In this document: in pieces, positions 472 to 16,212 of the stretch
How positions within the stretch are numbered: position 1 is the first letter of the stretch
How the letters are laid out: the number at the start of each line of letters is the position of its first letter
Source: Candidatus Woesearchaeota archaeon
GTDB lineage: Archaea; Nanobdellota; Nanobdellia; SCGC-AAA011-G17; GW2011-AR18
Length of the DNA stretch: 16,212 bases
Assembly (NCBI GenBank): GCA_964372555.1
Contig: CAYJQZ010000009.1
Location: 1 to 16,212 of the forward strand
Reading direction: 5' to 3'
Notes under the pieces: model-generated
Seen by the model: only the letters and a program-made list of their open reading frames with translations
Databases searched by the model: none
What the model was told of the DNA's origin: nothing
Made by a program: the position numbers and the translations under genes

Positions 472-1335
472 ATGCTATTTTGGTACTTTTTGGTTATTGT
501 GGCTTTGATATGGCTTTTGTTTGCTACTATAACTGATATTAAGAAAAAAGAGGTTCCTGATTGGCTCAACTATAGCTTGGTTATTATTGGTTTAGGAAGC
601 AGGCTGATTTATTCTCTTATAACCTGGGATTTTAGCTATATTTTATTTGGTTTACTTGGTTTTGTTGTATTCTTTGTTTTTGCGCATTTAATGTATTACA
701 CAAAACAATGGGGTGGCGGTGATAGTAAGCTATTAATGGGTTTAGGCGCAATGTTTGGAAATTATGAACCTATTTTCAATGGAATAAATTTGCTTCCCTT
801 TTTAGTTACACTCTTGATAAATATATTTGTAGCTGGAACTTTGTATGGAATTTTATACTCTTTGTTTTTAGGTGTTAGAAATTGGAATAAATTTGCAACT
901 GAATTCAGAAAGAGGAATTTTATGGAGGTAAAAATAATAGGTTTGCTTATTTTTGTTTTAATTATTGTTATTTATTTTGTTTTTAGTAAAGACTTGTCTT
1001 ATTTAATAATTTTATTATTGCTACTCTTATTTTTAGCTTTTGTTTTATTACAGCTAATAAAAATAGTTGAAGATTCTTCCTTGTATAAACTAATTAATAT
1101 AAATCAATTAACTGAAGGAGACTGGTTAGTTAATGATATTGCAAAGAATGGAAAAATAATATGCAAGGTAAGAAATATAGGTTTGACTAAAAAAGATATA
1201 GTTGCTTTAAAGAAAGCTCAAATCAAAAAAGTTTTGGTGAAAGAAGGAATACCTTTTGTTCCTGGATTTTTAATTGGGTTTTTAATAAGTATAATGTGGG
1301 GTGATGTTTTGGCTATTATGGTTGCTTTTTTTTAG
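472..1335 (+). CDS. Archaeal type IV prepilin/preflagellin peptidase (A24 family, FlaK/PibD/EppA-like)
   Basis: Polytopic membrane protein. First catalytic Asp context is TITDIKKKEVPDW. Second is the GxGD motif WGGGDSKLLMGLG. The terminal helix IPFVPGFLIGF is typical of A24 peptidases. A soluble insert (EGDWLVNDIAKNGKIICKV...) sits before the last TM, as in FlaK. Confidence 0.85.
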   Translation: MLFWYFLVIVALIWLLFATITDIKKKEVPDWLNYSLVIIGLGSRLIYSLITWDFSYILFGLLGFVVFFVFAHLMYYTKQWGGGDSKLLMGLGAMFGNYEPIFNGINLLPFLVTLLINIFVAGTLYGILYSLFLGVRNWNKFATEFRKRNFMEVKIIGLLIFVLIIVIYFVFSKDLSYLIILLLLLLFLAFVLLQLIKIVEDSSLYKLININQLTEGDWLVNDIAKNGKIICKVRNIGLTKKDIVALKKAQIKKVLVKEGIPFVPGFLIGFLISIMWGDVLAIMVAFF

Positions 1336-4949: not shown

Positions 4950-5975
4950 TTATACATCCTTAACGCCACTTTCTTCTATGTTAAAAACTATCTCTCCGTC
5001 AGCTAAGTGCGGACTATCAATAAGTTTTGCAACTCTCGTTCCTTTCTTTCCTTTTCTAAGATAAATTCTAGTTTGACTGTTGTGTCCCACTATATGCCCT
5101 CCAATGGCTGCAGTCGGATCTCCAAAGAAAGTGTCTGGTTTTGACATAACTTGATTTGTTACATAGACTACTAAGTTGTAAGCTGTAGCCATTTTACTTA
5201 GTACGTGCATATGTTTATTCAATTTTTGTTGTCTGTCCGCTAACATTCCCCTTCCCGTAAAATCTGCTCTAAAATGTGACATCAATGAATCCACAATTAC
5301 TAATTTCACATTTAGTCCTTCATTTTTTATTAGATCTTCAACTTTCTCTGCAAGAAGCATTTGATGATCACTGTTGAAAGCCCTAGCAACTTTAATATTT
5401 TTTAGAGTTTGTGTTGAATCAAGTCCTAATGATTCTGCCATTTGCTTAACTCTTTCTGGTCTAAATGCACCTTCAGTGTCTATGTAAACACATATTCCCT
5501 CAGCTCCGCCTTTCTCTTTAGACAACTGAACATTTACTGCAAGCTGATGTGCAATTTGTGTCTTCGATGAACCAAATTCCCCAAAACATTCTGTAATTCC
5601 ACCAGCTTCAAATCCTCCACCAAGTAAACCATCAAAGGCCTTACAACCTGTAGTAAGTTTTAATAGATTCTTTCTTCTTTCTAGTAATTCATCACCAGAT
5701 TCAAAACCCATATTCATTGTATCTCTTGCTGCTTTGATAACTTTTCTTGCTGTAGCTTCTGTTAATCCACCAGCTTCAACTAATTCTCCTGGAGATGCAA
5801 CTGCCAAAGACAATAAAGTATCAAATCCTGATTCTTTTAATTTTTCAGCTGTTGCTGGTCCTACTCCTGGCAAATCTTCAACAGAATCAATTTTAACTTT
5901 CTTAGTAATCTTTTCTTCAGGCATAACCTCTTGTATCTGTTCTGTTATTTCAATCTTTCTACTCATTTTCCTCAT
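4950..5975 (-). CDS. radA: DNA repair and recombination protein RadA
   Basis: N-terminal HhH (LPGVGPATAEKLKESGFDTL), Walker A region GEFGSSKTQ, Walker B LVIVDSLMSHFR, and the LNKHMHVLSKMA and GGHIVGHNSQTRIYLRKG blocks. An alternative start is the ATG at 5966, which has GGAGG 9 nt upstream. Confidence 0.93.
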   Translation of the reverse strand: MRKMSRKIEITEQIQEVMPEEKITKKVKIDSVEDLPGVGPATAEKLKESGFDTLLSLAVASPGELVEAGGLTEATARKVIKAARDTMNMGFESGDELLERRKNLLKLTTGCKAFDGLLGGGFEAGGITECFGEFGSSKTQIAHQLAVNVQLSKEKGGAEGICVYIDTEGAFRPERVKQMAESLGLDSTQTLKNIKVARAFNSDHQMLLAEKVEDLIKNEGLNVKLVIVDSLMSHFRADFTGRGMLADRQQKLNKHMHVLSKMATAYNLVVYVTNQVMSKPDTFFGDPTAAIGGHIVGHNSQTRIYLRKGKKGTRVAKLIDSPHLADGEIVFNIEESGVKDV

Positions 5976-6228
5976 CCTCCTCTTTTTCTTCCTGTGCTAA
6001 AAGTAAATCTTCCATTACTTTATTCATCAAAACAATTATTCTTGGTATGTCATGCTTTCTTAATTGGATTGTTGCGTCACGCCATACTCCCTGGTCATCT
6101 TTCCAGCTTTTTCTTAGGCTTACTGTTTTGAAACCTACTATTGTATCGTCTTTTATTTGTCTTTCATTAAGCCAGATTGCAGCCTCTAACTGACCTGACC
6201 TAAACTTCTGTATTGGTCTATTTCCCAT
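5959..6228 (-). CDS. Small protein with a poly-acidic C-terminal tail, co-transcribed with radA; possible PC4/YdbC-like ssDNA-binding fold
   Basis: 89 aa. GGAG is present 9-12 nt upstream of the ATG. The body (FKTVSLRKSWKDDQGVWRDATIQLRKHDIPRIIVLMNKV) resembles the beta-sheet-plus-helix PC4/YdbC pattern. The tail is EEKEEDEENE. The 3' end overlaps the radA start by 8-17 nt. Confidence 0.6.
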   Translation of the reverse strand: MGNRPIQKFRSGQLEAAIWLNERQIKDDTIVGFKTVSLRKSWKDDQGVWRDATIQLRKHDIPRIIVLMNKVMEDLLLAQEEKEEDEENE

Positions 6229-6529: not shown

Positions 6530-7174
6530 TTATCTTATGACCTCGTAATCTTTGTTTGTTGGTTTTATATATTCTTTTATCCAGTATAACATTACTTTTA
6601 AGTATCCTTTATTATCAAATCTCCTTGTTGAGCTTATTACTGGGGTTTTTAAAAGTAGAAATTCATTTTCCTTGTTTAATTTTTTTACAAAGTTTCCATC
6701 TTCACCCTTTTTTAGATCACTGAAACCTCCCACTTTAGAAAATACTTCTTTTGTGCAGAATACAATGCCATTTGTAAATGGTAGTGGATATAAATTTTTT
6801 ATAGCCATCATAATCCTGTGCTTTAACTTATTGCTGTCTGGTTTAATTTTGCATGTCCCATAGAATTTTTTGTTTAAAGCATTAGATACTTCTTCTAGAA
6901 CTCCAAATGTTATTTTTGTGTCTGCATCTAGAAATATTAATTTATTATACTTTGATAATTTAACGCCTTCATTCTTAGCTGTTGCCGGACCTTTTCTTTC
7001 TTTAAGAATAACAACTTTATCAGCTAATTTCTCAGCCATCTTATCAGTATTATCTGTACAGCCGTCACATACAACAATTATTTCATAATCTTTAAAATTT
7101 TGAGATTTGATAGAGTTTATTGTTGCTTCTAAATAATTTTCTTCATTGCATGCAGGTATTATTATTGATATCAT
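6530..7174 (-). CDS. Family 2 glycosyltransferase (GT-A)
   Basis: ISIIIPACNEENYLE N-terminus, YEIIVVCDGCTDNT, and the DxD motif FLDADT. Confidence 0.85.
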   Translation of the reverse strand: MISIIIPACNEENYLEATINSIKSQNFKDYEIIVVCDGCTDNTDKMAEKLADKVVILKERKGPATAKNEGVKLSKYNKLIFLDADTKITFGVLEEVSNALNKKFYGTCKIKPDSNKLKHRIMMAIKNLYPLPFTNGIVFCTKEVFSKVGGFSDLKKGEDGNFVKKLNKENEFLLLKTPVISSTRRFDNKGYLKVMLYWIKEYIKPTNKDYEVIR

Positions 7175-7209
7175 CTAATAGCATGTATAGATTAAATTTA
7201 AAAACTTAC

Positions 7210-7653
7210 TCATATTATAAGTAAATACAATATACCAAAAACTATACCGAGAACTAAACCAAATAAAACGTCTATGAAATAATGTTTTTTAAGGTGCATT
7301 CTAGAATAGCCTATTAATAAAGAAATTAATATAAAAAACCCCGTGATTATTGGTTTTTTAATTTCATTTGCTAAAACTATTGCTGTATACATAGAACTCA
7401 TTGTATGCAAACTGGGAAATGATGACGCATTTATCTTTGTAAATAGATTTGTATATTCTTCTTTTTTTGGTCTTTCTTTGAAATAAAACAACCTAAGTAT
7501 AAAGACAAAGGTGTAAGCTATTATTAAACCTAAGGCAAGATAAATTCCTAGTTTGAGCTTACCAATTAAAAGCAAGAAAATTACCAGTATTGTATAAAAT
7601 ACTGCTGATCCTAGATTTGTTATTGCTGTAAAAATGTCTTTTGTTATTTTCAT
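7210..7653 (-). CDS. PAP2-family membrane phosphatase
   Basis: Three PAP2 motifs are present: RLFYFKERP (K/RxxxxxxRP), PSLH (the PSGH position) and SRMHLKKHYFIDV (SRxxxxxHxxxD). Confidence 0.8.
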   Translation of the reverse strand: MKITKDIFTAITNLGSAVFYTILVIFLLLIGKLKLGIYLALGLIIAYTFVFILRLFYFKERPKKEEYTNLFTKINASSFPSLHTMSSMYTAIVLANEIKKPIITGFFILISLLIGYSRMHLKKHYFIDVLFGLVLGIVFGILYLLII

Positions 7654-7654
7654 T

Positions 7655-8128
7655 TTATATTATACTTAATATTTTTGCTGTATAAAATATATCTAATGCA
7701 ATTATTATATAGAATATAAAGAATTCTAATGTTGCGCCCGTTGTCATTGGACCTTGAATTCTGAATGTGGATACTGGATGCAAGAAATTTATACCTTCTT
7801 TTGTTACTGCATCACCAAGTAAGTGTGCTATATATCCAATAGCTACTGTTAGTGCTAAAAAATTAAGATTGAAGTAACTTAATCCAAAAAAAAGTATGAA
7901 AACTGGAAATATTGAATGAAAAAATCCTCTATGTTTAAATATCCATGATATTGGTATTGATATGAAGAAGAATTTTCTTCCTATTTTGCTTTTAGGATGG
8001 TCTATGTCTGGTAAAGAACTAAATATTGTTACTAAAAATACAAATAGAAATGGAAAACTAACCTTAAATATACTTAATGATAATAATCCAATTAGAAATC
8101 CAAAAGCTAGATGTGTTTTAAACAGCAT
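7655..8128 (-). CDS. Membrane-bound metal-dependent hydrolase, YdjM/DUF457 family
   Basis: Contains LPDIDHP, HRGFFHS and HLLGD motifs between TM helices. Confidence 0.75.
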   Translation of the reverse strand: MLFKTHLAFGFLIGLLSLSIFKVSFPFLFVFLVTIFSSLPDIDHPKSKIGRKFFFISIPISWIFKHRGFFHSIFPVFILFFGLSYFNLNFLALTVAIGYIAHLLGDAVTKEGINFLHPVSTFRIQGPMTTGATLEFFIFYIIIALDIFYTAKILSII

Positions 8129-8129
8129 T

Positions 8130-9080
8130 TTACATATTTTCTATTTCTGCTATTAGTGCTTCTGGTTTTGGTTCTTCTAAATTATTAACAACCAATTCTA
8201 TTCTGTTGAACATTTCATTTTTTGTAACCTTACCACGAAGAAGCAACTGTTTGCCTAGAACCTCTTTTTTTATATCTTCGAAATTTTCTTTGTTTGATAG
8301 TAATTTGGTTGCTTGATCTCTAAATAAAACTGCTCTTATATTCCCAGTACCGTCGTCAAAGAAGATATTTACTATTGGTACTTGTTTAGGCGGTACATTG
8401 CCATGTTCTTGGCAATTGAAAATTTCTCCCTGCTGGAATACTTTCCTATTGCATACTGGACACGCGTTATAATGTTTTGGTTCAAATATTTGAACCACTG
8501 TACCTAAAATTTCTACAAATTCTTCTTCATTTAAATCTTTAATTTGTTTTCTTTTTGTTGTGTTTAACTTAACTTCACCAATTGTTTCGTTCTCAGGATT
8601 TATTATTAATTGGGATTTACTTCCTAAATGTAGTTCTTTGAAGCCATTATTATTTTGTTTTGAATAAGCATTATTTACTTTTACTATGTCTCCTTCTTTA
8701 ATTTCTTTAGTTAAATCAATAAGTTTTTCATCCCAAATTACTATTCTTATTGATCCGGTTTCATCCCCCATAAATAATGAACCAATTCTGCCTTGTTTAT
8801 CCTTTTTTTGAAAAGATTTAATTTCATTCACATTTATTACCTTACCAAGAACATTCACAGAATTTAGGCCTACTTCTACTTGCTTTATCTTTAAGGTTTT
8901 ATTTGTTCCATCAAATAATTTTACGTTCAATTCATTTGCAACTATGTGTGCTGCACCTTCTTTAGATATTAAGTCTTGTAGTTCTATTAACTTTTTATTT
9001 ATTTTCTCTTCTATATCTTGTTTAGAAAGTCCTGTTGTCTCTACAATTTTGTTTATGATTGTGTTGTAACCAAGAATCAT
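8130..9080 (-). CDS. Replication protein A (archaeal ssDNA-binding protein, two OB folds plus a Zn finger)
   Basis: N-terminal helical domain (LISKEGAAHIVANELNV). OB fold 1 (VNVLGKVINV...GRIGSLFMGDETGSIRIVIWD). OB fold 2 is interrupted by CPVCNRKV-x10-CQEHG (a C-x2-C...C-x2-H zinc ribbon), followed by FFDDGTGNIRAVLFRD. Confidence 0.85.
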   Translation of the reverse strand: MILGYNTIINKIVETTGLSKQDIEEKINKKLIELQDLISKEGAAHIVANELNVKLFDGTNKTLKIKQVEVGLNSVNVLGKVINVNEIKSFQKKDKQGRIGSLFMGDETGSIRIVIWDEKLIDLTKEIKEGDIVKVNNAYSKQNNNGFKELHLGSKSQLIINPENETIGEVKLNTTKRKQIKDLNEEEFVEILGTVVQIFEPKHYNACPVCNRKVFQQGEIFNCQEHGNVPPKQVPIVNIFFDDGTGNIRAVLFRDQATKLLSNKENFEDIKKEVLGKQLLLRGKVTKNEMFNRIELVVNNLEEPKPEALIAEIENM

Positions 9081-9116: not shown

Positions 9117-10634
9117 TTATGCATAGTTCGGCGTAACTGTTGCAGATGCACTAGCCATAGTATCTTCACTAAAGTAACATTTATTTGCTTGTTTTGCTTG
9201 GTCATAACCAGCAGAGAGGTATTCATAATGCCACCATTCTCTTCCGTAATTTGCCCAGCCTGCTCTGCACATTATATTACGCAAGTCTCTTATGTCTTGT
9301 TGCGAAGTTCCTTTTTTAAGCTGTACATCTAAAGCACGTCCAGAAACATGCCTACATACAGAATAACGAGGTAAGTCTTCTATAATTGCTAAAGTATTTA
9401 GATCATTTTGTGAAAGCCAATTTCTTGCAGCTTCTATGCGCTGTTGCGTTGTGCCTTCTACGTTTGGTACTCTTTTTTCTAATTCGTATTTATCTTCTAT
9501 TCCAATAGGGCCACATGCTTCAACTCTTCCTGCTAAAAATGCTAAGAATGCGTTACGTTGTGATTCTGATGAACGCGCTGCATCGTTAATTATTATATGT
9601 TGAGATGGATTTGATATAACTTGCCTTATCCTTTCTATCTGCCCAACACTTTCTTGTTTGGCGCAACATGTTGATTTTAAACATTTAACTTCTTCATCTT
9701 GTGGTATTGGAATTAGGCTTTCAGCTAAACCTCTGCATTGGCCTGATGTTGCTATGGCTGTTTCTTCTATAATATTTTCTTCTGCATTAGAATAAAACAA
9801 TTCTTCTTCATAATCATATGTTTCTGTATCTTGATATTCTGGTATTGGTTGTGATGGATTAAATGCTAATTTTATATTCCCTTTGTTTGTCTCTAAGTCT
9901 ACTTTAATTAATTCACCAGACCTAACTATATTTATTGTTGGGAAATATTGTGTTAGTTTAGATTGACATTCACTAAATTCTTTATCTATACAATTTTCTT
10001 GTATCGTGTAGTACAAGTCTCTATATACTGAAAGTGGCGGTCTTGTTGTGCTTGTTAATGGTTTCATAACTAAAACAGAACCTTCTGCGCTTTCTACCGG
10101 TAAGTTTACATCTGATAATGTAATTATTAATTTACTGCCAGAGAATTCTGTATTTATTATATTAGAATTGTTTACATTTTCTGTATATATTTGAGCATAT
10201 TTAATTTGGGTTTCTGGGTTCTCCATATTTAGATCATTTTTATAATCTAGCTGTGTGTATTTACTTTCATATTTATTTATTTTATTTTTAAATTTATTTT
10301 TGAATTGTGATATAAACTCTTGGCTTGGATTTAACACTGGGCATGAATTCCATAATACATAGCCATCTCCTGTTTTTTCGCATCTATTGTTTTCAGAATA
10401 GCCGCCATTGTTTGCTAATGTTTCCCAAGTTTCTTTAGAAGCATATTTTGCAGATAGATCTAAATAAATGTTTATTTTCTCAGATTCATCATAATTCTTA
10501 ATTAAATTTACTGCTCTTAATCCAACTAGGTCTTGTTTGTTTGCTTCCGTTGTACTTATTATGTAAAATAATACAGAGAGTATTACTGCTGTGAATATTA
10601 CGAATATTGGTAAGAAAACTCCTTTTTTATTCAT
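9117..10634 (-). CDS. Class III signal peptide (pilin-like) protein with a C-terminal M15 VanY-like / LAS zinc D-Ala-D-Ala-type peptidase domain
   Basis: Start set at the ATG at 10634 (MNKKGVFLPIFVIFTAVILSVLFYII), which has GAGGA 9 nt upstream. The track start at 10679 is a TTG inside the previous gene. C-terminal motifs are NDAARSSESQRNAF, then CRHVSGRALDV (HxxGxAxD, His codon at 9348-9350), then REWWHYEY (ExxH). Confidence 0.8.
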   Translation of the reverse strand: MNKKGVFLPIFVIFTAVILSVLFYIISTTEANKQDLVGLRAVNLIKNYDESEKINIYLDLSAKYASKETWETLANNGGYSENNRCEKTGDGYVLWNSCPVLNPSQEFISQFKNKFKNKINKYESKYTQLDYKNDLNMENPETQIKYAQIYTENVNNSNIINTEFSGSKLIITLSDVNLPVESAEGSVLVMKPLTSTTRPPLSVYRDLYYTIQENCIDKEFSECQSKLTQYFPTINIVRSGELIKVDLETNKGNIKLAFNPSQPIPEYQDTETYDYEEELFYSNAEENIIEETAIATSGQCRGLAESLIPIPQDEEVKCLKSTCCAKQESVGQIERIRQVISNPSQHIIINDAARSSESQRNAFLAFLAGRVEACGPIGIEDKYELEKRVPNVEGTTQQRIEAARNWLSQNDLNTLAIIEDLPRYSVCRHVSGRALDVQLKKGTSQQDIRDLRNIMCRAGWANYGREWWHYEYLSAGYDQAKQANKCYFSEDTMASASATVTPNYA

Positions 10635-11215
10635 TATATTTTCCTCAGTGCTATGTCTGCTCTTTCTATATTTGTACAATCAAAACAACCAAAGTACATG
10701 GTTACTGTTGCTGTTTCTCCGTTCTCTAGCGGAATAGACATAGATTGAGCTAAATGGCTGTAACTTCCTACCTCAAATACTTCTGGTTCTCCAAGACGCA
10801 AGAAATTATTTTGCCCTATCTTTATATTAAAGTTCCATGTTGCTTCTTTGCTCTTTCTTGTTGCTTCGCTTGTAGCAATTATGCTTGCTGGTTGTCCTTC
10901 TACAACTGGTAATTTGCTTAATAATGTTTTGAGCTCTTCATTTAATTCATCTTTATAATTTTCATCTTTGTAAGCCAATGATATTAATTCTCCTACTGTT
11001 AATGCATTGTTATTTTGTTGTATTGACGTTGGTGACCTAATAATTGCGTTTAATTCTGAACTAGAACTGTATGCTTCTGGTCTTATAACTAAATTTGGTG
11101 ATTGCTTAATTCCTATCACAAAAAAGATAGTGCCAAAAAAAATTAAGATGAGTACTAGCAAGACAACTGACTGAAAAAAATACAGTGGATAACTAATTCC
11201 TTTTTTATTAAACAA
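10634..11215 (-). CDS. Class III signal peptide (pilin-like) protein, unknown function
   Basis: TTG start at 11215 with AGGTGAT (a strong anti-16S match) 5 nt upstream. N-terminus is (M)FNKKGISYPLYFFQSVVLLVLILIFFGTIFFV. There is a C-terminal CFDC pair. It overlaps both neighbours. Confidence 0.7.
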   Translation of the reverse strand: MFNKKGISYPLYFFQSVVLLVLILIFFGTIFFVIGIKQSPNLVIRPEAYSSSSELNAIIRSPTSIQQNNNALTVGELISLAYKDENYKDELNEELKTLLSKLPVVEGQPASIIATSEATRKSKEATWNFNIKIGQNNFLRLGEPEVFEVGSYSHLAQSMSIPLENGETATVTMYFGCFDCTNIERADIALRKI

Positions 11216-11684
11216 GTTTTATCACCTGTGTAATCATGTGGCCAGTTTTTATTTCTCCATTTTGGAAGTATGAAACTAATTCTTTTCTTGTGAGACATTT
11301 GTATTTCTCTAAATTGCTACAGATTGGAAGATAGGATTCCTGACTAATATCTAGATTGCTTGCTGATGTTAATGTATTTCCGTCTATATCATCTACAAGA
11401 ATAACATAACCAAATCCCTCTTTTGAAAAACATCTGTTTAATGTATCAAAATTAATTTTTTGGATGTCTATAATCCCTAGATGTGTTCTAGTTCCGTCAT
11501 TGTAAGCTAAGCAAGAATCAGAATACATTAAGTTTCTAGTTAGTAAAAAAGTTTCGAGGCCTATAGTATCTATGTCTTCGTTTAAGTATCTTAATGTTAC
11601 TATTAAAATAAAGATTGCTACAACTATTACAATCATTAAGTTAACTGCTATCTTTACTATATCCAATATTCCTTTTTTATGCAT
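11208..11684 (-). CDS. Class III signal peptide (pilin-like) protein, unknown function
   Basis: N-terminus MHKKGILDIVKIAVNLMIVIVVAIFILIV. Four Cys in the extracellular part. It has 8-nt overlaps with both neighbours. Confidence 0.7.
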   Translation of the reverse strand: MHKKGILDIVKIAVNLMIVIVVAIFILIVTLRYLNEDIDTIGLETFLLTRNLMYSDSCLAYNDGTRTHLGIIDIQKINFDTLNRCFSKEGFGYVILVDDIDGNTLTSASNLDISQESYLPICSNLEKYKCLTRKELVSYFQNGEIKTGHMITQVIKLV

Positions 11685-12045
11685 TTTTTCTTATTTTTAT
11701 AACATTATTCTGTAATTTTTCTTCTGTAATTTCTATGAGGCTATTTCTTGCACAATGAAATGCTGCAGGTGTTCTTTTTTCTTCTATATAATTTGCTTTT
11801 ACTAAGCACACTTCTTTGTTTATGTCTATTTCAATGCCTTGCTTTGTATTATATTTGTATTCTAATTGGTGGGGTGCAGGTAATGCTGCATCTCTAAGAA
11901 ATGCATAGTCTCTTGATTCTACTCTTAAATTGTGGAGGTGATCGTCTTTTATTCTTGCTGTACCAGCGAGCAGAACTGCTGTTACTATTAAAAGAAAGAA
12001 TAATTCTGTTAATAGCTCTGTTGATATTAATAATCCTTTTTTCAT
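11677..12045 (-). CDS. Class III signal peptide (pilin-like) protein, unknown function
   Basis: Start set at the ATG at 12045 (MKKGLLISTELLTELFFLLIVTAVLLAG), 1 nt after the upstream stop. The track start at 12177 is a TTG inside the SLT gene. Two Cys are present. Confidence 0.65.
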   Translation of the reverse strand: MKKGLLISTELLTELFFLLIVTAVLLAGTARIKDDHLHNLRVESRDYAFLRDAALPAPHQLEYKYNTKQGIEIDINKEVCLVKANYIEEKRTPAAFHCARNSLIEITEEKLQNNVIKIRKNA

Positions 12046-12046
12046 T

Positions 12047-13705
12047 TTATGATGCTGCCTGTAATTCATTATAATATCTTCTTGCAGTCGTAGCGTATGC
12101 TCTTGTTTCATTGCAACAATAATTATTATCATCAATAACGCCTGCCCTGCCCGGTCCTGCATTGTAGCCTGCTGCAATATTTTCTACTGTAAGCGGGATT
12201 CCTCTTCTTGCTAATATTTTTTTAATATAAACAATGTAATCTATTGCTGCGACTACTGCTTTTCTTTCATTAAATCTCTCATCATACAAAGCAAGCTGTG
12301 TTGTTGGTGTTGCACTTCTAAATCTATCAAGCGCTGCCCCATAATTTCTATCACATCCACTAGTAAATTGCACTCCCTGTCCTGTTCTTGGATCTGTTAC
12401 TGGATCTAATACTCTTAAACCAAGGCCTTTGCCTGTGGTTGGCATTATCTGCATTAACCCTGCAGCACCACAATGAGATACTGCATATGGATCCCAGGTA
12501 TTACCTGTCTCTATTTTTACTATAGAAATAACTAATGAGGGATCAACTCCCTTTTCTTCTGCTTTTTGTCTTATGAATGGCATTAGTTCTGACTGTAGTT
12601 CTGATAATGAACTTGGTGTTTGCGCTGCAGTTAATTTACTTATAGCAAAATTATTTGAGAAATCATTAAATGTTGCACTACAAATATATTCTGTTGCTAT
12701 TTCTATGCACCGCAATGGAACCTGTAGCCAGGTATTTCCTTTTTTGTAATAAAGACCTAGGTTTCTTTCTTGTTGCGGTAATTTGTCTACCTTTGTTTTT
12801 GATATTGCTAGTTCTATTTCTGCCCTGCTTACTAAATTTGGATCTATGCTATTGTGATTTTCTATATATCTCTCTGCTGCTTCGAAATTTTCTGCTGTTG
12901 GCTTTGATCCTAGTTCCATAAACTGCGGAGCAGGATAGAAATGACCTGGTTCTCTATTTGTTTCTGTTGTAGTTGTATCTGGCGGTACTGCTAGATCTAA
13001 ATCAAAAAGTGTTGTGAGGCCTTCAATATTAGGAACGCCTTCTGGAACTATAAAGCCTGCTTCTTTTACTTTTACAATTGGTATGTAAGATTTTATTCTA
13101 ATAGTTTCAAAGGTTACAGATAATTTATTTAACAATCCAGTTACGTCTACGGGAGTAACACCACTTCTAGTATAAACAATAGGTTTTGGTGCTTTTTCTC
13201 CTGTTGGACTATTTACTCTAATGGTTTTGTCATCCTTTACAAAACTAAGTACTGTGTATGTTTCTAGGTCTTCAGTAGAAAACTGTTCTGAATTTACTTC
13301 GTCAAAGTTTTTGAATTTATAACAATCATAGGGATCACATTCTACGTTGCCGGTTATTATATTTCTATCAATGTCACACAAACATATTGTTGCTTCTCTT
13401 GGTTGTACTCCTGGGTAGGGTATTTCATTTCCAACTTGCCTTAAACTAAAACTTACTATATTACAATCATTATTATAAAACAAGAACTGAGATGAAGGTG
13501 CACCAGAATCTAGATCCTTAAGTATTTCCTTTAAGCCATTACTACCATCCCAAGATTTACTATTTGAGCAACTTGCTTTATCTGGTAGTAGTATGTCTGA
13601 AAATATTGGTGCTTTCAATACAATTATAATTATTAATAATACAGCGACTATTAAACTAAAAAGTGCATATGTCTGTATATCTATTGACCCCTTTTTATTT
13701 TTCAT
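12047..13705 (-). CDS. Class III signal peptide (pilin-like) protein with a C-terminal SLT/GH23 lytic transglycosylase domain
   Basis: N-terminus MKNKKGSIDIQTYALFSLIVAVLLIIIIV. The C-terminal sequence VISIVKIETGNTWDPYAVSHCGAAGLMQIMPTT...AGYNAGPGR matches the SLT signature E[ST]-x5-P-x-A-x-S-x2-GA-x-GLMQ plus AYNAG. The catalytic Glu codon is at 12509-12511. Confidence 0.85.
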   Translation of the reverse strand: MKNKKGSIDIQTYALFSLIVAVLLIIIIVLKAPIFSDILLPDKASCSNSKSWDGSNGLKEILKDLDSGAPSSQFLFYNNDCNIVSFSLRQVGNEIPYPGVQPREATICLCDIDRNIITGNVECDPYDCYKFKNFDEVNSEQFSTEDLETYTVLSFVKDDKTIRVNSPTGEKAPKPIVYTRSGVTPVDVTGLLNKLSVTFETIRIKSYIPIVKVKEAGFIVPEGVPNIEGLTTLFDLDLAVPPDTTTTETNREPGHFYPAPQFMELGSKPTAENFEAAERYIENHNSIDPNLVSRAEIELAISKTKVDKLPQQERNLGLYYKKGNTWLQVPLRCIEIATEYICSATFNDFSNNFAISKLTAAQTPSSLSELQSELMPFIRQKAEEKGVDPSLVISIVKIETGNTWDPYAVSHCGAAGLMQIMPTTGKGLGLRVLDPVTDPRTGQGVQFTSGCDRNYGAALDRFRSATPTTQLALYDERFNERKAVVAAIDYIVYIKKILARRGIPLTVENIAAGYNAGPGRAGVIDDNNYCCNETRAYATTARRYYNELQAAS

Positions 13706-13744: not shown

Positions 13745-13918
13745 TTATGGTGTTATATTTGATATTAATGCTGATCCTGTTTGTGCTTGGTCCCTTAAAT
13801 TAGAGCCAACTAAATTTCCATATTTTATAACGAAAAAAGCCACTAGGGCTAGGACAATTAAAATTAAAATCGCTATAACTAAGGTTTCAAGTGATAAAGA
13901 AACGGCTTTTTTATTCAT
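13745..13918 (-). CDS. Mini-pilin (57 aa) with a class III signal peptide
   Basis: Not in the track because it is under 60 aa. My translation is MNKKAVSLSLETLVIAILILIVLALVAFFVIKYGNLVGSNLRDQAQTGSALISNITP. Its ATG lies 1 nt after the upstream stop (TGAAATG). Confidence 0.6.
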   Translation of the reverse strand: MNKKAVSLSLETLVIAILILIVLALVAFFVIKYGNLVGSNLRDQAQTGSALISNITP

Positions 13919-13919
13919 T

Positions 13920-14327
13920 TCAACATTGGATACCAGAGCAGTCTACATTAAGACTTCCTGTTTGAGTTATGCCTCTTCTTCCATCATCTGCTGTCAATTC
14001 TGGATTAACACTGGGTGCACATGACATTCTCTTAGGTTTTGTTTCTGGGTTTGCATCATCATCAACTAAAAATGTTTGTTTACAATAACCTGATTCTTTT
14101 TGATTTGTAGAAGGCAGATTCCCTGCACTTTCACATAAACTAGTGCATGTTTGTATTGCTAAATCTTTTGCTTGGCCAGCACTGCCACCAAATAAATCTC
14201 TAACTTTCCCAACAATGCTACCAAAACCGCCTGCAAAGAAAGCAATTAGAATGACAAGCACAACTAAAACAATTATTGCTATAATAATAACATTCATCGG
14301 CATTCCTTGTGCTTTTTTGTTAAACAT
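13920..14327 (-). CDS. Pilin-like protein (135 aa) with a class III signal peptide and a Cys-rich C-terminal domain; candidate major subunit
   Basis: N-terminus MFNKKAQGMPMNVIIIAIIVLVVLVILIAFFAG. Six Cys in the globular part. It is the only gene inside the block with its own TATA box plus an SD-like AGGTG. Confidence 0.75.
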   Translation of the reverse strand: MFNKKAQGMPMNVIIIAIIVLVVLVILIAFFAGGFGSIVGKVRDLFGGSAGQAKDLAIQTCTSLCESAGNLPSTNQKESGYCKQTFLVDDDANPETKPKRMSCAPSVNPELTADDGRRGITQTGSLNVDCSGIQC

Positions 14328-14381: not shown

Positions 14382-16046
14382 TTAGCTTATACATAAAAGT
14401 TGCTGACATTCGTTGTTGCTATAAGCTGATTGATATATTGCCTCTGCTATGATATTCTGTCCTGCTGCATTTGGATGTAAATGATCTCCGCTATCAAACT
14501 CTGGCTTTAGTGCTCCTGCCCCATTATTGAGTGCAGCATATATATTAACAGACATATCTACATTCTCTGCTTCAGTTAAGATCCAATTATTTATACTAAT
14601 AATTTTATTTTGTGTGTATTGATTACATGTCACTGTAGATGATTGATAACCGCCACAAGGAGTTAATGTCAAAGCTATGACTCTCATATTATTTTGTTTT
14701 CCCTTTAGGTACATCTCTGCCAAATTATCTTTTATATCTTGTTCTGGCCCTGCAATGTTGTTTATTCCGCCTTGTATTATTACATCTTTATAATTCTTAG
14801 ATGTTATATCCACATCAAACCTAGCAGACATTGCTGCTGTTCCTTGCCCTTCAATACCATATTCATTGAAAAGTTGAGAACCACAAAGCGAATTTAATCT
14901 TTGGACATATATTCCTGATGCAGTAATTGAATCACCAATAACGCCTGCATCACATTTTGCTGAACCTGTTGGAATTAATGGGGGGTTTAGACCTAGTCTG
15001 CCTCTTTCTTCTGCTATTCTTCTTTGCTGTGCTTGTTCTAGTGTAACAGGGAGCAAACATAAATTATTTTCAAACGGATAGAAATCAATTTCTACATAAT
15101 CATTAAAATTCAATGTTGACAATGGTTGCTGGTCTGCTTGTGCTGTGTTTCTATAGTCTGAAAAACCGCAAGGCGTCTTTGTAAGTTGTTGTGATTTTAC
15201 TTCTTCGTCTTTATAATTAAGTACAAATTTATTATTTTTTAAGTTTATTGAAAAGTCAGCTATTGTTTTTAGTACTGCTGTTGTATATTTACATTCATCC
15301 CTAACATTTGTTTCTAAGCATTTATTTACTATGGATAATAATTTGTCAAATTCTTCAGATGCTATAGTTGCTCCTTCTAATTTTTCACATTTTTTGAGTC
15401 CTGTTGTTGTTGCTTTTGGAACTAGTGCTGATTTTTCGTTGCTAAATTTGTATAATGCTATTCCACTTTCAACATTTATTTCATCACTCCCACTTACATC
15501 TGTAGCAGAATAAATAGTATCTTCTTCAACAAACTGTCTTTCAACTGGTGTAAAGTCTAGTATGTTTAATTTTCCTCCTTCCTGTATTGGATAGCTTAAT
15601 CCTGAATTTTTAAAATATGTAGTGTCTGGTGCATCAATTGGTGTTGTTTTGGTTGTTACTCCACTCGAGAATTCAACTTGTTCTATACTATTTGTTCCAA
15701 AAAATGCTGCTTCATCTACTTCTGCTCCACTGTGAACACGTATTGCTGTGGCCTTATCTCTATTAACAATTTCCATAATATATAATTCCGGTGTTTTAGG
15801 ATAACTAATTTCACAGTAGCATTCTGCTGATAGAGAGAGTTTACATTCTCTATAACTATTTACAAATTCATCATAGAATGGAAGGTCTCTGTTTACGCCT
15901 AATTCTTGTCTTTCCCTGTCTGCTTGACTTTCCCCTAACAAATTTGGTATGGTATTGGATAGAATTATATATACCCAATACAATAAACCAATTACTGCTA
16001 TTATTATCAAAAATAACATTATTGGCTTTCTTAAAGACAATTCCAT
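14382..16046 (-). CDS. N-terminally anchored secreted protein with a C-terminal SGNH/GDSL hydrolase domain
   Basis: N-terminus MELSLRKPIMLFLIIIAVIGLLYWVYIIL is a signal anchor without the KK[GA] motif. SGNH blocks are VIGDSITASG (block I, Ser codon at 14928-14930), YGIEGQG (block II), IQGGINN (block III) and SGDHLHPN (block V, DxxH). Confidence 0.8.
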   Translation of the reverse strand: MELSLRKPIMLFLIIIAVIGLLYWVYIILSNTIPNLLGESQADRERQELGVNRDLPFYDEFVNSYRECKLSLSAECYCEISYPKTPELYIMEIVNRDKATAIRVHSGAEVDEAAFFGTNSIEQVEFSSGVTTKTTPIDAPDTTYFKNSGLSYPIQEGGKLNILDFTPVERQFVEEDTIYSATDVSGSDEINVESGIALYKFSNEKSALVPKATTTGLKKCEKLEGATIASEEFDKLLSIVNKCLETNVRDECKYTTAVLKTIADFSINLKNNKFVLNYKDEEVKSQQLTKTPCGFSDYRNTAQADQQPLSTLNFNDYVEIDFYPFENNLCLLPVTLEQAQQRRIAEERGRLGLNPPLIPTGSAKCDAGVIGDSITASGIYVQRLNSLCGSQLFNEYGIEGQGTAAMSARFDVDITSKNYKDVIIQGGINNIAGPEQDIKDNLAEMYLKGKQNNMRVIALTLTPCGGYQSSTVTCNQYTQNKIISINNWILTEAENVDMSVNIYAALNNGAGALKPEFDSGDHLHPNAAGQNIIAEAIYQSAYSNNECQQLLCIS

Positions 16047-16047
16047 T

Positions 16048-16203
16048 TTATGAACCGAACCTGAATATATCTTTTAATTTATCTAATATAACTCCTGATT
16101 TTCCTCGAAATAGAAATACAATTCCAATTATTATTATTAAAATTATTAGAGCTAATATTAACTTAATTATGATATCGAGTTCTAAATCTGCTTTTTTGTT
16201 CAT
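16048..16203 (-). CDS. Mini-pilin (51 aa) with a class III signal peptide
   Basis: Not in the track. My translation is MNKKADLELDIIIKLILALIILIIIIGIVFLFRGKSGVILDKLKDIFRFGS. Its stop lies 1 nt before the next ATG (TAAAATG). An in-frame ATG at 16212 (MQRMNKKA...) is possible, so the true start and the upstream context are cut by the window edge. Confidence 0.55.
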   Translation of the reverse strand: MNKKADLELDIIIKLILALIILIIIIGIVFLFRGKSGVILDKLKDIFRFGS

Positions 16204-16212
16204 GCGTTGCAT

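Follow-up and report, generated by a model that had tools for sequence, protein, structure and literature searches.

A predicted M15/LAS zinc peptidase on a pilin-like carrier in a Woesearchaeota operon with exchangeable enzyme cargo

Whether the archaea of the Woesearchaeota and Pacearchaeota live on bacteria or on other archaea is an open question, and the discussion has so far rested mostly on the SLT (lytic transglycosylase) domains of their proteins. The M15 peptidases, the modular pilins of bacteria, the class III signal peptide binding proteins of archaea, the large SLT proteins of Woesearchaeota, and the secreted peptidoglycan hydrolases of archaea are each known separately. Here we describe a stretch of 16,212 nucleotides (the window) from a Candidatus Woesearchaeota archaeon (contig CAYJQZ010000009.1, assembly GCA_964372555.1) that carries a tightly packed block of nine genes. 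The final gene of the block encodes a 505-amino-acid (aa) protein in which a pilin-like N-terminal carrier is joined to a C-terminal module predicted to be a zinc peptidase of the M15/LAS fold.

Modular pilins are typified by PilB and PilC of Streptococcus sanguinis (Raynaud et al. 2021, PMC8179133). The survey in that paper was based on the bacterial IPR012902 motif, does not mention archaea, and found mainly ligand-binding modules, with a single peptidase signature. The archaeal class III binding proteins have been described with solute-binding cargo (bioRxiv 10.64898/2026.04.22.720090; PMC4858521), and the terms "peptidoglycan" and "hydrolase" are absent from the bioRxiv report. Likewise, "M15," "VanY," and "pilin" do not occur in the text of the study on secreted archaeal peptidoglycan hydrolases (PLoS Biol 2025, PMC12352652). 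In a literature search that had subscription journals outside its scope, we found no description of the M15 family reported here, of wall hydrolases from archaea that bear pilin-type leaders, or of a type IV filament operon in archaea whose hydrolase cargo is swappable.

We consider it probable that the 505-aa protein is a modular pilin-like subunit that presents a peptidoglycan peptidase against bacteria. To the question of hosts, the locus adds a second wall-cutting enzyme class, in the form of a very rare and divergent M15 family; a candidate delivery route, which combines a class III leader with a type IV filament operon beside a FlaI/TadA-type ATPase; and an evolutionary pattern, the swapping of cargo on fixed carriers, that is typical of effector systems under host-driven selection. 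An earlier reading of the letters without database searches (the sequence-only reading) had named the gene as an M15/LAS zinc peptidase, with a pilin-like N terminus, at the end of its block, and all three elements are supported below.

The C-terminal zinc-peptidase module

The protein is translated from a minus-strand open reading frame (ORF; Table 1), and translation placed the ORF and all of the quoted motifs at the coordinates that had been claimed for them. We take the ATG at 10634 to be the real start because it overlaps the upstream stop codon by 1 nucleotide (nt), because a Shine-Dalgarno-like GAGGA lies 9 to 10 nt 5' of it, and because the N termini of homologs start at the same M-x-NKKG; an alternative TTG start at 10679 was discarded on these grounds. 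An ortholog (P0002) is 48% identical over the full length of the protein.

Residues 298 to 505 are predicted, with support from sequence comparison and from modeling, to form a divergent M15/LAS zinc-peptidase module. The motif CRHVSGRALDV occupies aa 427 to 437 (H429 codon at 9348-9350 and D436 codon at 9327-9329), and REWWHYEY occupies aa 465 to 472 (H469 codon at 9228-9230). In an alignment of eight sequences, whose members are 37 to 58% identical to the module studied here, R354, Q359, H429, G432, D436, E466, W467, W468, and H469 are invariant, as are six cysteines of the module (C300, C318, C323, C324, C456, and C486). R354 also aligns with an Arg of the more distant VanY-domain protein P0012, and it presumably corresponds to R71 of VanX; the VanY-type form of this motif is SxxR-x4-Q.

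Sequence profiles place the module closest to VanX. Pfam PF01427 (Peptidase_M15, VanX-type) matched at an E value of 3.4e-6 over aa 441 to 480 only, its 27.4 bits just clearing the cut-off of 27; among the other family members scanned, P0003 passes (28.3 bits) and five fall below the cut-off, at 20 to 26 bits. PF02557, PF13539, and PF08291 did not match the protein at E<=0.1 or six of its relatives at E<=0.01, and PF02557 was present only in P0012. The score against the VanX equivalog of NCBIfam, NF033115, was far below threshold (20.6 bits versus a cut-off of 320). A search of the PDB with the single module sequence returned VanX alone (E 0.18), and a family profile built from seven members reached VanX 1r44 at E 9e-5. 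The alignment of that profile to the 1r44 sequence puts the H-x6-D of the family on H116/D123 of VanX and the E-x-x-H on E181/H184, the residues that serve as zinc ligands and general base in VanX. Overall, the module is only 13 to 17% identical to solved M15 members, and its sequence is VanX-like around ExxH and VanY-type around R-x4-Q.

The AlphaFold model of aa 290 to 505 has a mean predicted local distance difference test (pLDDT) score of 84.3 and a predicted template modeling (pTM) score of 0.80. Its significant Foldseek neighbors in the PDB are LAS-fold proteins only, including VanY_B (E 7e-5), VanXYc, VanX, LdcB, and Ply500; all 18 top matches are M15 enzymes followed by the Hedgehog N-domain, at a probability of 1.00. 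When viral structures were searched, M15B peptidases and endolysins of phages ranked highest. The TM-scores of the PDB matches, 0.43 to 0.51, are moderate, probably owing to the Cys-rich hairpin region, a helical insertion, and the C-terminal tail. The insertion, of about 57 residues, is missing from P0012 in the alignment and probably also from VanX. Weak matches of the family profile to the FAS death domain (E about 0.2) were dismissed as a chance likeness of this helical insertion. The extreme C-terminal tail ATVTP[GN]YA (aa 498 to 505, 9120-9143 on the minus strand) is kept in the closest M15-module subfamily (C termini of P0002 to P0024), and a similar tail occurs in giant proteins; it is modeled with low confidence and may serve as a sorting signal, as a lid over the active site, or in interactions.

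These results change parts of the sequence-only reading and leave its core in place. The LAS fold that it proposed to check by structure prediction is borne out by the model, and "VanY-like" holds by structure; by hidden Markov models (HMMs) it does not, the sole match being the marginal, VanX-type one over 40 residues, and none of the three profiles that it named for hmmscan hit the protein. Its catalytic motifs stand as quoted, with the predicted catalytic base, E466 inside REWWHYEY, left unnamed. Its "~160 residues" were too few, the module being about 208 residues long (298 to 505). The Cys-rich stretch that it called a linker (CRGLAE, aa 300 to 305, through CLKSTCCAKQE, aa 318 to 328) is instead a conserved part of the module, confidently modeled as a beta-hairpin region of short beta-strands (pLDDT 86 to 90), whose cysteines may form disulfides or a second metal site, and the true linker lies at aa 271 to 297.

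Hedgehog N-domains keep the fold and the zinc site and are not primarily proteases. Their presence among the structural matches, together with the finding that modular pilins mostly carry binding modules (PMC8179133), would suit a noncatalytic LAS-fold module that, like the Hedgehog N-domain, binds, here as an adhesin for peptidoglycan or another ligand. We regard this as very unlikely, since all of the catalytic residues, including the base Glu and the Arg, are invariant among the aligned members (37 to 58% identical to the module), the best structural matches are active peptidases, and other catalytic wall hydrolases are found together with the module.

The module is very rare. When all 1.84 billion cluster representatives were searched with a profile, 216 proteins scored at E<=1e-3; of these, 30 passed E<=1e-10 and 12 passed E<=1e-30, and the named ones among the 12 are Woesearchaeota or Nanoarchaeota. 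Of 185,579 species-representative genomes that were scanned, only two contain the full module, and both belong to the Woesearchaeota. An origin from VanX by recent transfer was also considered. Bacterial matches in the genome scan cover the ExxH stretch only; since this stretch was also the source of the scan patterns, the scan says little about the origin of the module. A partial match, 46% identical over module positions 128 to 192 (the C-terminal third), was seen at 10001-10213 of L009, a contig labeled uncultured Methanosarcinales archaeon.

The module forms the C-terminal part of larger surface proteins, with one exception, P0028 (1,603 aa), in which it lies within the chain (675-890), with over 700 residues after it. 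P0028 is one of several giant, mostly unannotated proteins with the same M15 module, along with P0023 (2,242 aa), P0024 (2,023 aa), and P0035 (2,190 aa). In P0019, P0021, and P0023, which are membrane-anchored or giant, SLT stands directly before M15 in one polypeptide (at the C terminus in P0023). The pairing of the M15 protein with the SLT enzyme of its block, proposed by the sequence-only reading, is tighter than was claimed, given these fusions. Proteins of this type appear to be the "large SLT proteins" of Woesearchaeota and Pacearchaeota (PMC8204110).

The pilin-like carrier and the filament operon

The N-terminal module, carrier C, begins with a putative class III leader in which K3 and K4 are nearly invariant and the next residue is G or A in most family members. 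Its AlphaFold model (pLDDT 80.5) shows a continuous helix over residues 7 to 75 and then an alpha/beta head, a predicted layout that resembles the general lollipop form of type IV pilins. In a hydropathy scan, aa 6 to 31 form the sole hydrophobic segment of the protein. A Foldseek comparison with the PDB gave the head no significant match. The linker that follows is not conserved in the family.

Carrier C stands alone in P0008, P0009, and P0010, and also in L004 and L007, two of the loci compared with the window. Elsewhere it carries other cargo, namely, GDSL plus M15 (P0003), Amidase_2 (P0005), VanY (P0012), or an alpha/beta-hydrolase-like domain plus M15 (P0007 and P0011). In P0007, P0011, and P0022, the middle region (about aa 200 to 480) has a GHSGA nucleophile-elbow-like motif and the look of an alpha/beta hydrolase, with no Pfam match. 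The N- and C-terminal modules occur independently and are joined by a linker predicted to be disordered, which is the combination by which a modular pilin is recognized.

The leader is a property of the block. In 33 of the 38 block proteins from four loci, the first 14 residues contain [KR]1-3[GA], and the 22-mer behind it is 73 to 100% nonpolar; none of the 11 other proteins of the window, which served as controls, has this pattern. The pilin-like N terminus claimed from sequence is supported by this difference, by the predicted long helix, by a FlaI/TadA-type ATPase in syntenic genomes, and by an A24/FlaK peptidase in the window. Carrier A, the N-terminal part of the 554-aa protein of the block, starts with MELSLRKPIML and is without the leader Gly/Ala in all four loci compared, where the hydrophobic stretch is immediately preceded by RK or, for L005 and L004, by a single K; cleavage by an A24 peptidase may be absent there or fall at a different site. 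Counted from the predicted cleavage site, D or E stands at +1, +3, and +5 in the smallest ORFs, and a single acidic residue falls within +2 to +8 in most other block subunits. The first 10 positions past the predicted cleavage are free of acidic residues in carrier C and in a 135-aa candidate major subunit. The tip pseudopilin GspK of the type II secretion system (T2SS) is without Glu5, and the residue is not conserved in archaeal pilins, so we give this pattern little weight.

From the contig edge, the block runs in the order 54-aa protein, 554-aa GDSL protein, 135-aa protein, 57-aa protein, 552-aa SLT protein, 122-aa protein, 158-aa protein, 193-aa protein, and the 505-aa protein. Its genes are tightly packed, with gaps of +1, -8, -8, and -1 nt, and are overlapping and translationally coupled. 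The nine genes are collinear in L001, L004, L005, L007, and the P0004 contig. That the M15 gene is the last of the block was borne out here and in four other loci, the gene for an RPA-type protein always coming next. The best-conserved member is the 135-aa protein, with 57 to 60% identity across loci versus 25 to 47% for the other leader-bearing block proteins. The 54-aa and 57-aa ORFs fall below the 60-aa limit of the ORF list, and both are kept at the same operon positions in L001, L004, and L005. For the 122-aa protein, a TTG start at 12177 was rejected, as alignment with the 120-aa homolog of L001 begins at residue 54 of the ORF.

Directly upstream of the block, L001, L004, and the P0004 contig carry a PF00437 (T2SSE) ATPase and a polytopic protein of about 725 aa. 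The best NCBIfam matches of the ATPase are FlaI (1.5e-38), TadA, and the bindosome ATPase BasE. The membrane protein (2079-4256 in L001 and 2054-4228 in L004) comes directly after the ATPase and has at least 3,948 homologs, the named ones all of this lineage (Woesearchaeota/Nanoarchaeia); among 120 matches listed of these at least 3,948, identity is 50 to 80%. Its position and topology suggest a platform protein. Searches with Pfam, NCBIfam, and the PDB (single sequence and profile) for a T2SSF/FlaJ identity were all negative, and the protein may represent an unrecognized, highly divergent platform family.

The same data would also accommodate an ectoenzyme, membrane tethered or bindosome-like, with the leader and helix as a surface anchor, possibly in a short pseudopilus or array and with no extended pilus; it would digest wall at the contact zone or free peptidoglycan debris and scavenge amino acids and muropeptides. 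DdpX-type dipeptidases have a scavenging role, and the similarity of the module to VanX and DdpX-type enzymes suits such nutrition. [quoted passage not shown] However, the gene lies in a fixed operon that pairs a single small, highly conserved candidate major subunit with several genes of minor-pilin size, as in the layout of a filament system, and the predicted helix of 69 residues is far longer than an anchor requires, although both features are compatible with a short pseudopilus. On balance, we judge the ectoenzyme unlikely, and we prefer the filament subunit.

Table 1 Coordinates of the features discussed and cargo found on the three carriers
Feature	Residues	Positions	Strand	Basis or content
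Whole gene: carrier, linker, and M15 module; final gene of block		9117..10634	(-)	Translation, motif positions
Leader MNKKG, putative class III (prepilin-type) signal, predicted cleavage after G5	1-5	10620..10634	(-)	Family conservation, operon pattern
Hydrophobic segment (26 nonpolar residues), N-terminal half of long helix	6-31	10542..10619	(-)	Hydropathy scan, model
N-module (carrier C): leader, 69-residue helix, alpha/beta head	1-270	9825..10634	(-)	Occurs alone or with other cargo; model
Acidic low-confidence linker	271-297	9744..9824	(-)	pLDDT <50 at end of N-module and start of C-module models
C-module (cargo), divergent M15/LAS-fold zinc peptidase (predicted)	298-505	9120..9743	(-)	Profile match aa 298-504, model, Foldseek, PF01427
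Cys-rich N-terminal substructure (C300, C318, C323, C324)	300-328	9651..9737	(-)	Invariance in 8 sequences; model
INDAARSSESQRNAF block with R354 and Q359, VanY-type R-x4-Q motif	349-363	9546..9590	(-)	Invariance
Family-specific helical insertion between Arg block and His-Asp motif	368-424	9363..9533	(-)	Helices at model residues 93-135
H429-x6-D436, two predicted Zn ligands		9327..9350	(-)	Invariant; aligned to VanX H116/D123
E466-W-W-H469, predicted catalytic base and third Zn ligand		9228..9239	(-)	Invariant; aligned to VanX E181/H184
193-aa pilin-like protein, MFNKKG leader		10634..11215	(-)	Position kept in L001, L004, L005, L007
158-aa pilin-like protein, MHKKG leader		11208..11684	(-)	Leader, locus alignment
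122-aa pilin-like protein, MKKG leader		11677..12045	(-)	Internal ATG 12045 is true start
552-aa carrier B with SLT lytic transglycosylase cargo		12047..13705	(-)	PF01464 at aa 378-434
57-aa small pilin-like ORF, MNKKA leader		13745..13918	(-)	Homolog of L001 7407-7583
135-aa pilin-like protein, candidate major subunit		13920..14327	(-)	Best conserved in block
554-aa carrier A with GDSL/SGNH hydrolase cargo		14382..16046	(-)	PF13472 at aa 369-530
54-aa small pilin-like ORF, MNKKA leader, starts at window edge		16048..16212	(-)	60-70% identical to same-position genes in L001, L004, L005
A24-family prepilin/preflagellin peptidase, candidate processing enzyme		472..1335	(+)	PF01478 4.3e-15 (weak to archaeal A24 C terminus); NCBIfam FlaK 3.3e-17
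Carrier A cargo				GDSL in window; M15 in L005/P0018; none in L001, L004, L007
Carrier B cargo				SLT in window; SLT+M23 in L005; M15 in L007, P0004, P0006, P0020; none in L001, L004
Carrier C cargo				M15 in window and L001; GDSL+M15 in L005; Amidase_2 in P0005; none in L004, L007, P0004 contig

Several further observations concern the surroundings of the block. Downstream, RPA, YdjM, PAP2, and GT2 genes follow in the same order and on the same strand (6530-9080, minus strand, in the window; also L001, L004, and L007). Inteins with LAGLIDADG endonuclease domains split the T2SSE ATPase in L001 (1-1799) and RadA in L004 (18902-20843). Two window ORFs, at 1947-2774 (275 aa) and 5959-6228 (89 aa), both on the minus strand, had no Pfam match.

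Exchangeable cargo and possible function

The M15 module rides on three different, nonhomologous carriers of one operon, and the cargo of each carrier varies from locus to locus (Table 1). Carrier A without cargo is 377 to 412 aa long and carrier B without cargo 328 to 342 aa (L001 and L004), and in L004 all of the carrier slots are cargo-free. In L006, a more distant locus, Amidase_2 and M15 are carried by two separate genes. Apart from GDSL, all of the identified cargo falls into enzyme classes known to act on peptidoglycan. The best solved relatives of the GDSL/SGNH cargo are generic GDSL/SGNH hydrolases, and a role in peptidoglycan de-O-acetylation is our inference only. The sequence-only reading missed this wider pattern of swappable enzyme cargo on fixed carriers.

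The window is AT-rich, with about 30% GC, and encodes the archaeal markers CDP-archaeol synthase, RadA, aEF-1beta, and an RPA-type single-strand-binding protein, by which a bacterial (candidate phyla radiation, CPR) origin was rejected. The named relatives of the 505-aa protein come from metagenome-assembled genomes of Candidatus Woesearchaeota or Nanoarchaeota. The producer is a woesearchaeote, a DPANN archaeon, which we take to be without a bacterial-type wall.

Wall hydrolases, for example, specialized lytic transglycosylases, are encoded in the operons of bacterial type IV pili, T2SS, and type IV secretion systems (T4SS). NCBIfam matches the SLT protein of the window to a flagellar-assembly lytic transglycosylase, and the hydrolases might on that model open the producer's own wall for passage of the filament. 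We give this remodeling of the producer's envelope hardly any credence. The contig is archaeal, and our literature search found no report of peptidoglycan synthesis in Woesearchaeota. Furthermore, the enzymes are fused to subunits and are not separate periplasmic proteins, and many operon versions are cargo-free, with none in L004; because so many versions carry no cargo, cargo is not needed for assembly.

For the filament subunit that we favor, the following course of events is proposed. The A24 prepilin peptidase would remove the basic leader MNKKG after G5, and the hydrophobic N-terminal helix would then hold the protein in the membrane, from which the FlaI/TadA-type ATPase machinery would load it, by way of this helix, into a filament. 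The modular minor pilins (PMC8179133) suggest, by analogy, that the subunit would probably sit at or near the filament tip, with the C-terminal module tethered by the acidic, flexible linker. Outside the cell, H429, D436, and H469 would act as metal ligands and E466 as the general base, while R354 would stabilize the substrate or the transition state, and the module's targets would be stem peptides or cross-links in the peptidoglycan of bacteria. Sister subunits with SLT and GDSL/SGNH esterase cargo would complete a wall-degrading toolkit facing the bacterial cell to which the archaeon attaches or on which it feeds.

A number of points weigh against this proposal. Leader cleavage and the filament itself are both predictions from sequence. 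The PF01427 match is marginal and spans only 40 residues around ExxH; the closest sequence similarity is to VanX, which is a dipeptidase and leaves the wall polymer uncut; and the TM-scores to PDB structures reach only 0.51, with high root mean square deviations. The ATPase gene lies outside the window, the contig ending before it, and Pfam, NCBIfam, a single-sequence PDB search, and a 12-sequence PDB profile gave no link between the ~725-aa protein and T2SSF/FlaJ. Finally, cargo-bearing versions are rare and the machinery is common, as the at least 3,948 membrane-protein homologs indicate; therefore, wall degradation is not the core function of the apparatus. On the other side, the identity of the domain, the conservation of its catalytic residues, the modularity of carrier and cargo, the synteny of the operon, and its linkage to the ATPase are directly supported by the observations above.

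A bolder version, in which Woesearchaeota bear an "armed" type IV filament whose minor subunits are swappable mounts for hydrolases (M15, SLT, M23, amidase, and probably esterases) and whose tip drills the wall of a bacterial host or prey, is put forward tentatively, and with more doubt than confidence. If true, such a filament, as a device for attack across domains, would have no described counterpart in either archaea or bacteria, and it would be direct molecular evidence that some DPANN archaea parasitize bacteria. With this locus, archaea and catalytic cargo also come within the scope of "modular pilins," and the module may be of practical use as a new lytic enzyme scaffold.

Comparison with described systems

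Among the M15 enzymes (MEROPS family M15, clan MD, with the LAS or Hedgehog/DD-peptidase fold), the module resembles VanY, VanXY, LdcB, and VanX in its H-x6-D and E-x-x-H motifs, its conserved Arg, its VanY-type R-x4-Q, and its predicted fold, and its substrates are probably of the same class, the peptide part of peptidoglycan. Unlike those enzymes, it adds the invariant Cys-rich substructure, the helical insertion, and the ATVTP[GN]YA tail, and it is archaeal and set within larger surface proteins.

The whole protein is built like PilB and PilC of S. sanguinis (PMC8179133), with a pilin carrier, a short linker, a grafted module, and the context of a minor-pilin operon. However, it is archaeal, its leader is without the bacterial N-methylation motif, and the cargo consists of enzymatic wall hydrolases that move among three carriers of one operon. 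With the archaeal class III signal peptide binding proteins (bioRxiv 10.64898/2026.04.22.720090; PMC4858521), it shares nonpilin domains behind a class III signal and a dependence, here predicted, on A24 and a FlaI/TadA-family ATPase; the cargo of those proteins binds solutes and is encoded beside ABC transporters, whereas here hydrolases are encoded inside a filament operon.

Within the same lineage, the large extracellular SLT proteins of Woesearchaeota and Pacearchaeota (fam00969; Castelle et al. 2021, PMC8204110; Vigneron et al. 2022, PMC9723730) have been assigned the same proposed role, the degradation or binding of bacterial walls. Those two papers report only a transglycosylase domain, and term searches of their text did not turn up the M15 module, pilin-type leaders, or an operon with the ATPase. 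Finally, the secreted archaeal peptidoglycan hydrolases (PMC12352652) are, like the protein described here, modular and aimed at bacterial peptidoglycan; those enzymes have Sec/Tat signals and known binding domains, come mostly from Halobacteria and similar groups, and kill bacteria.

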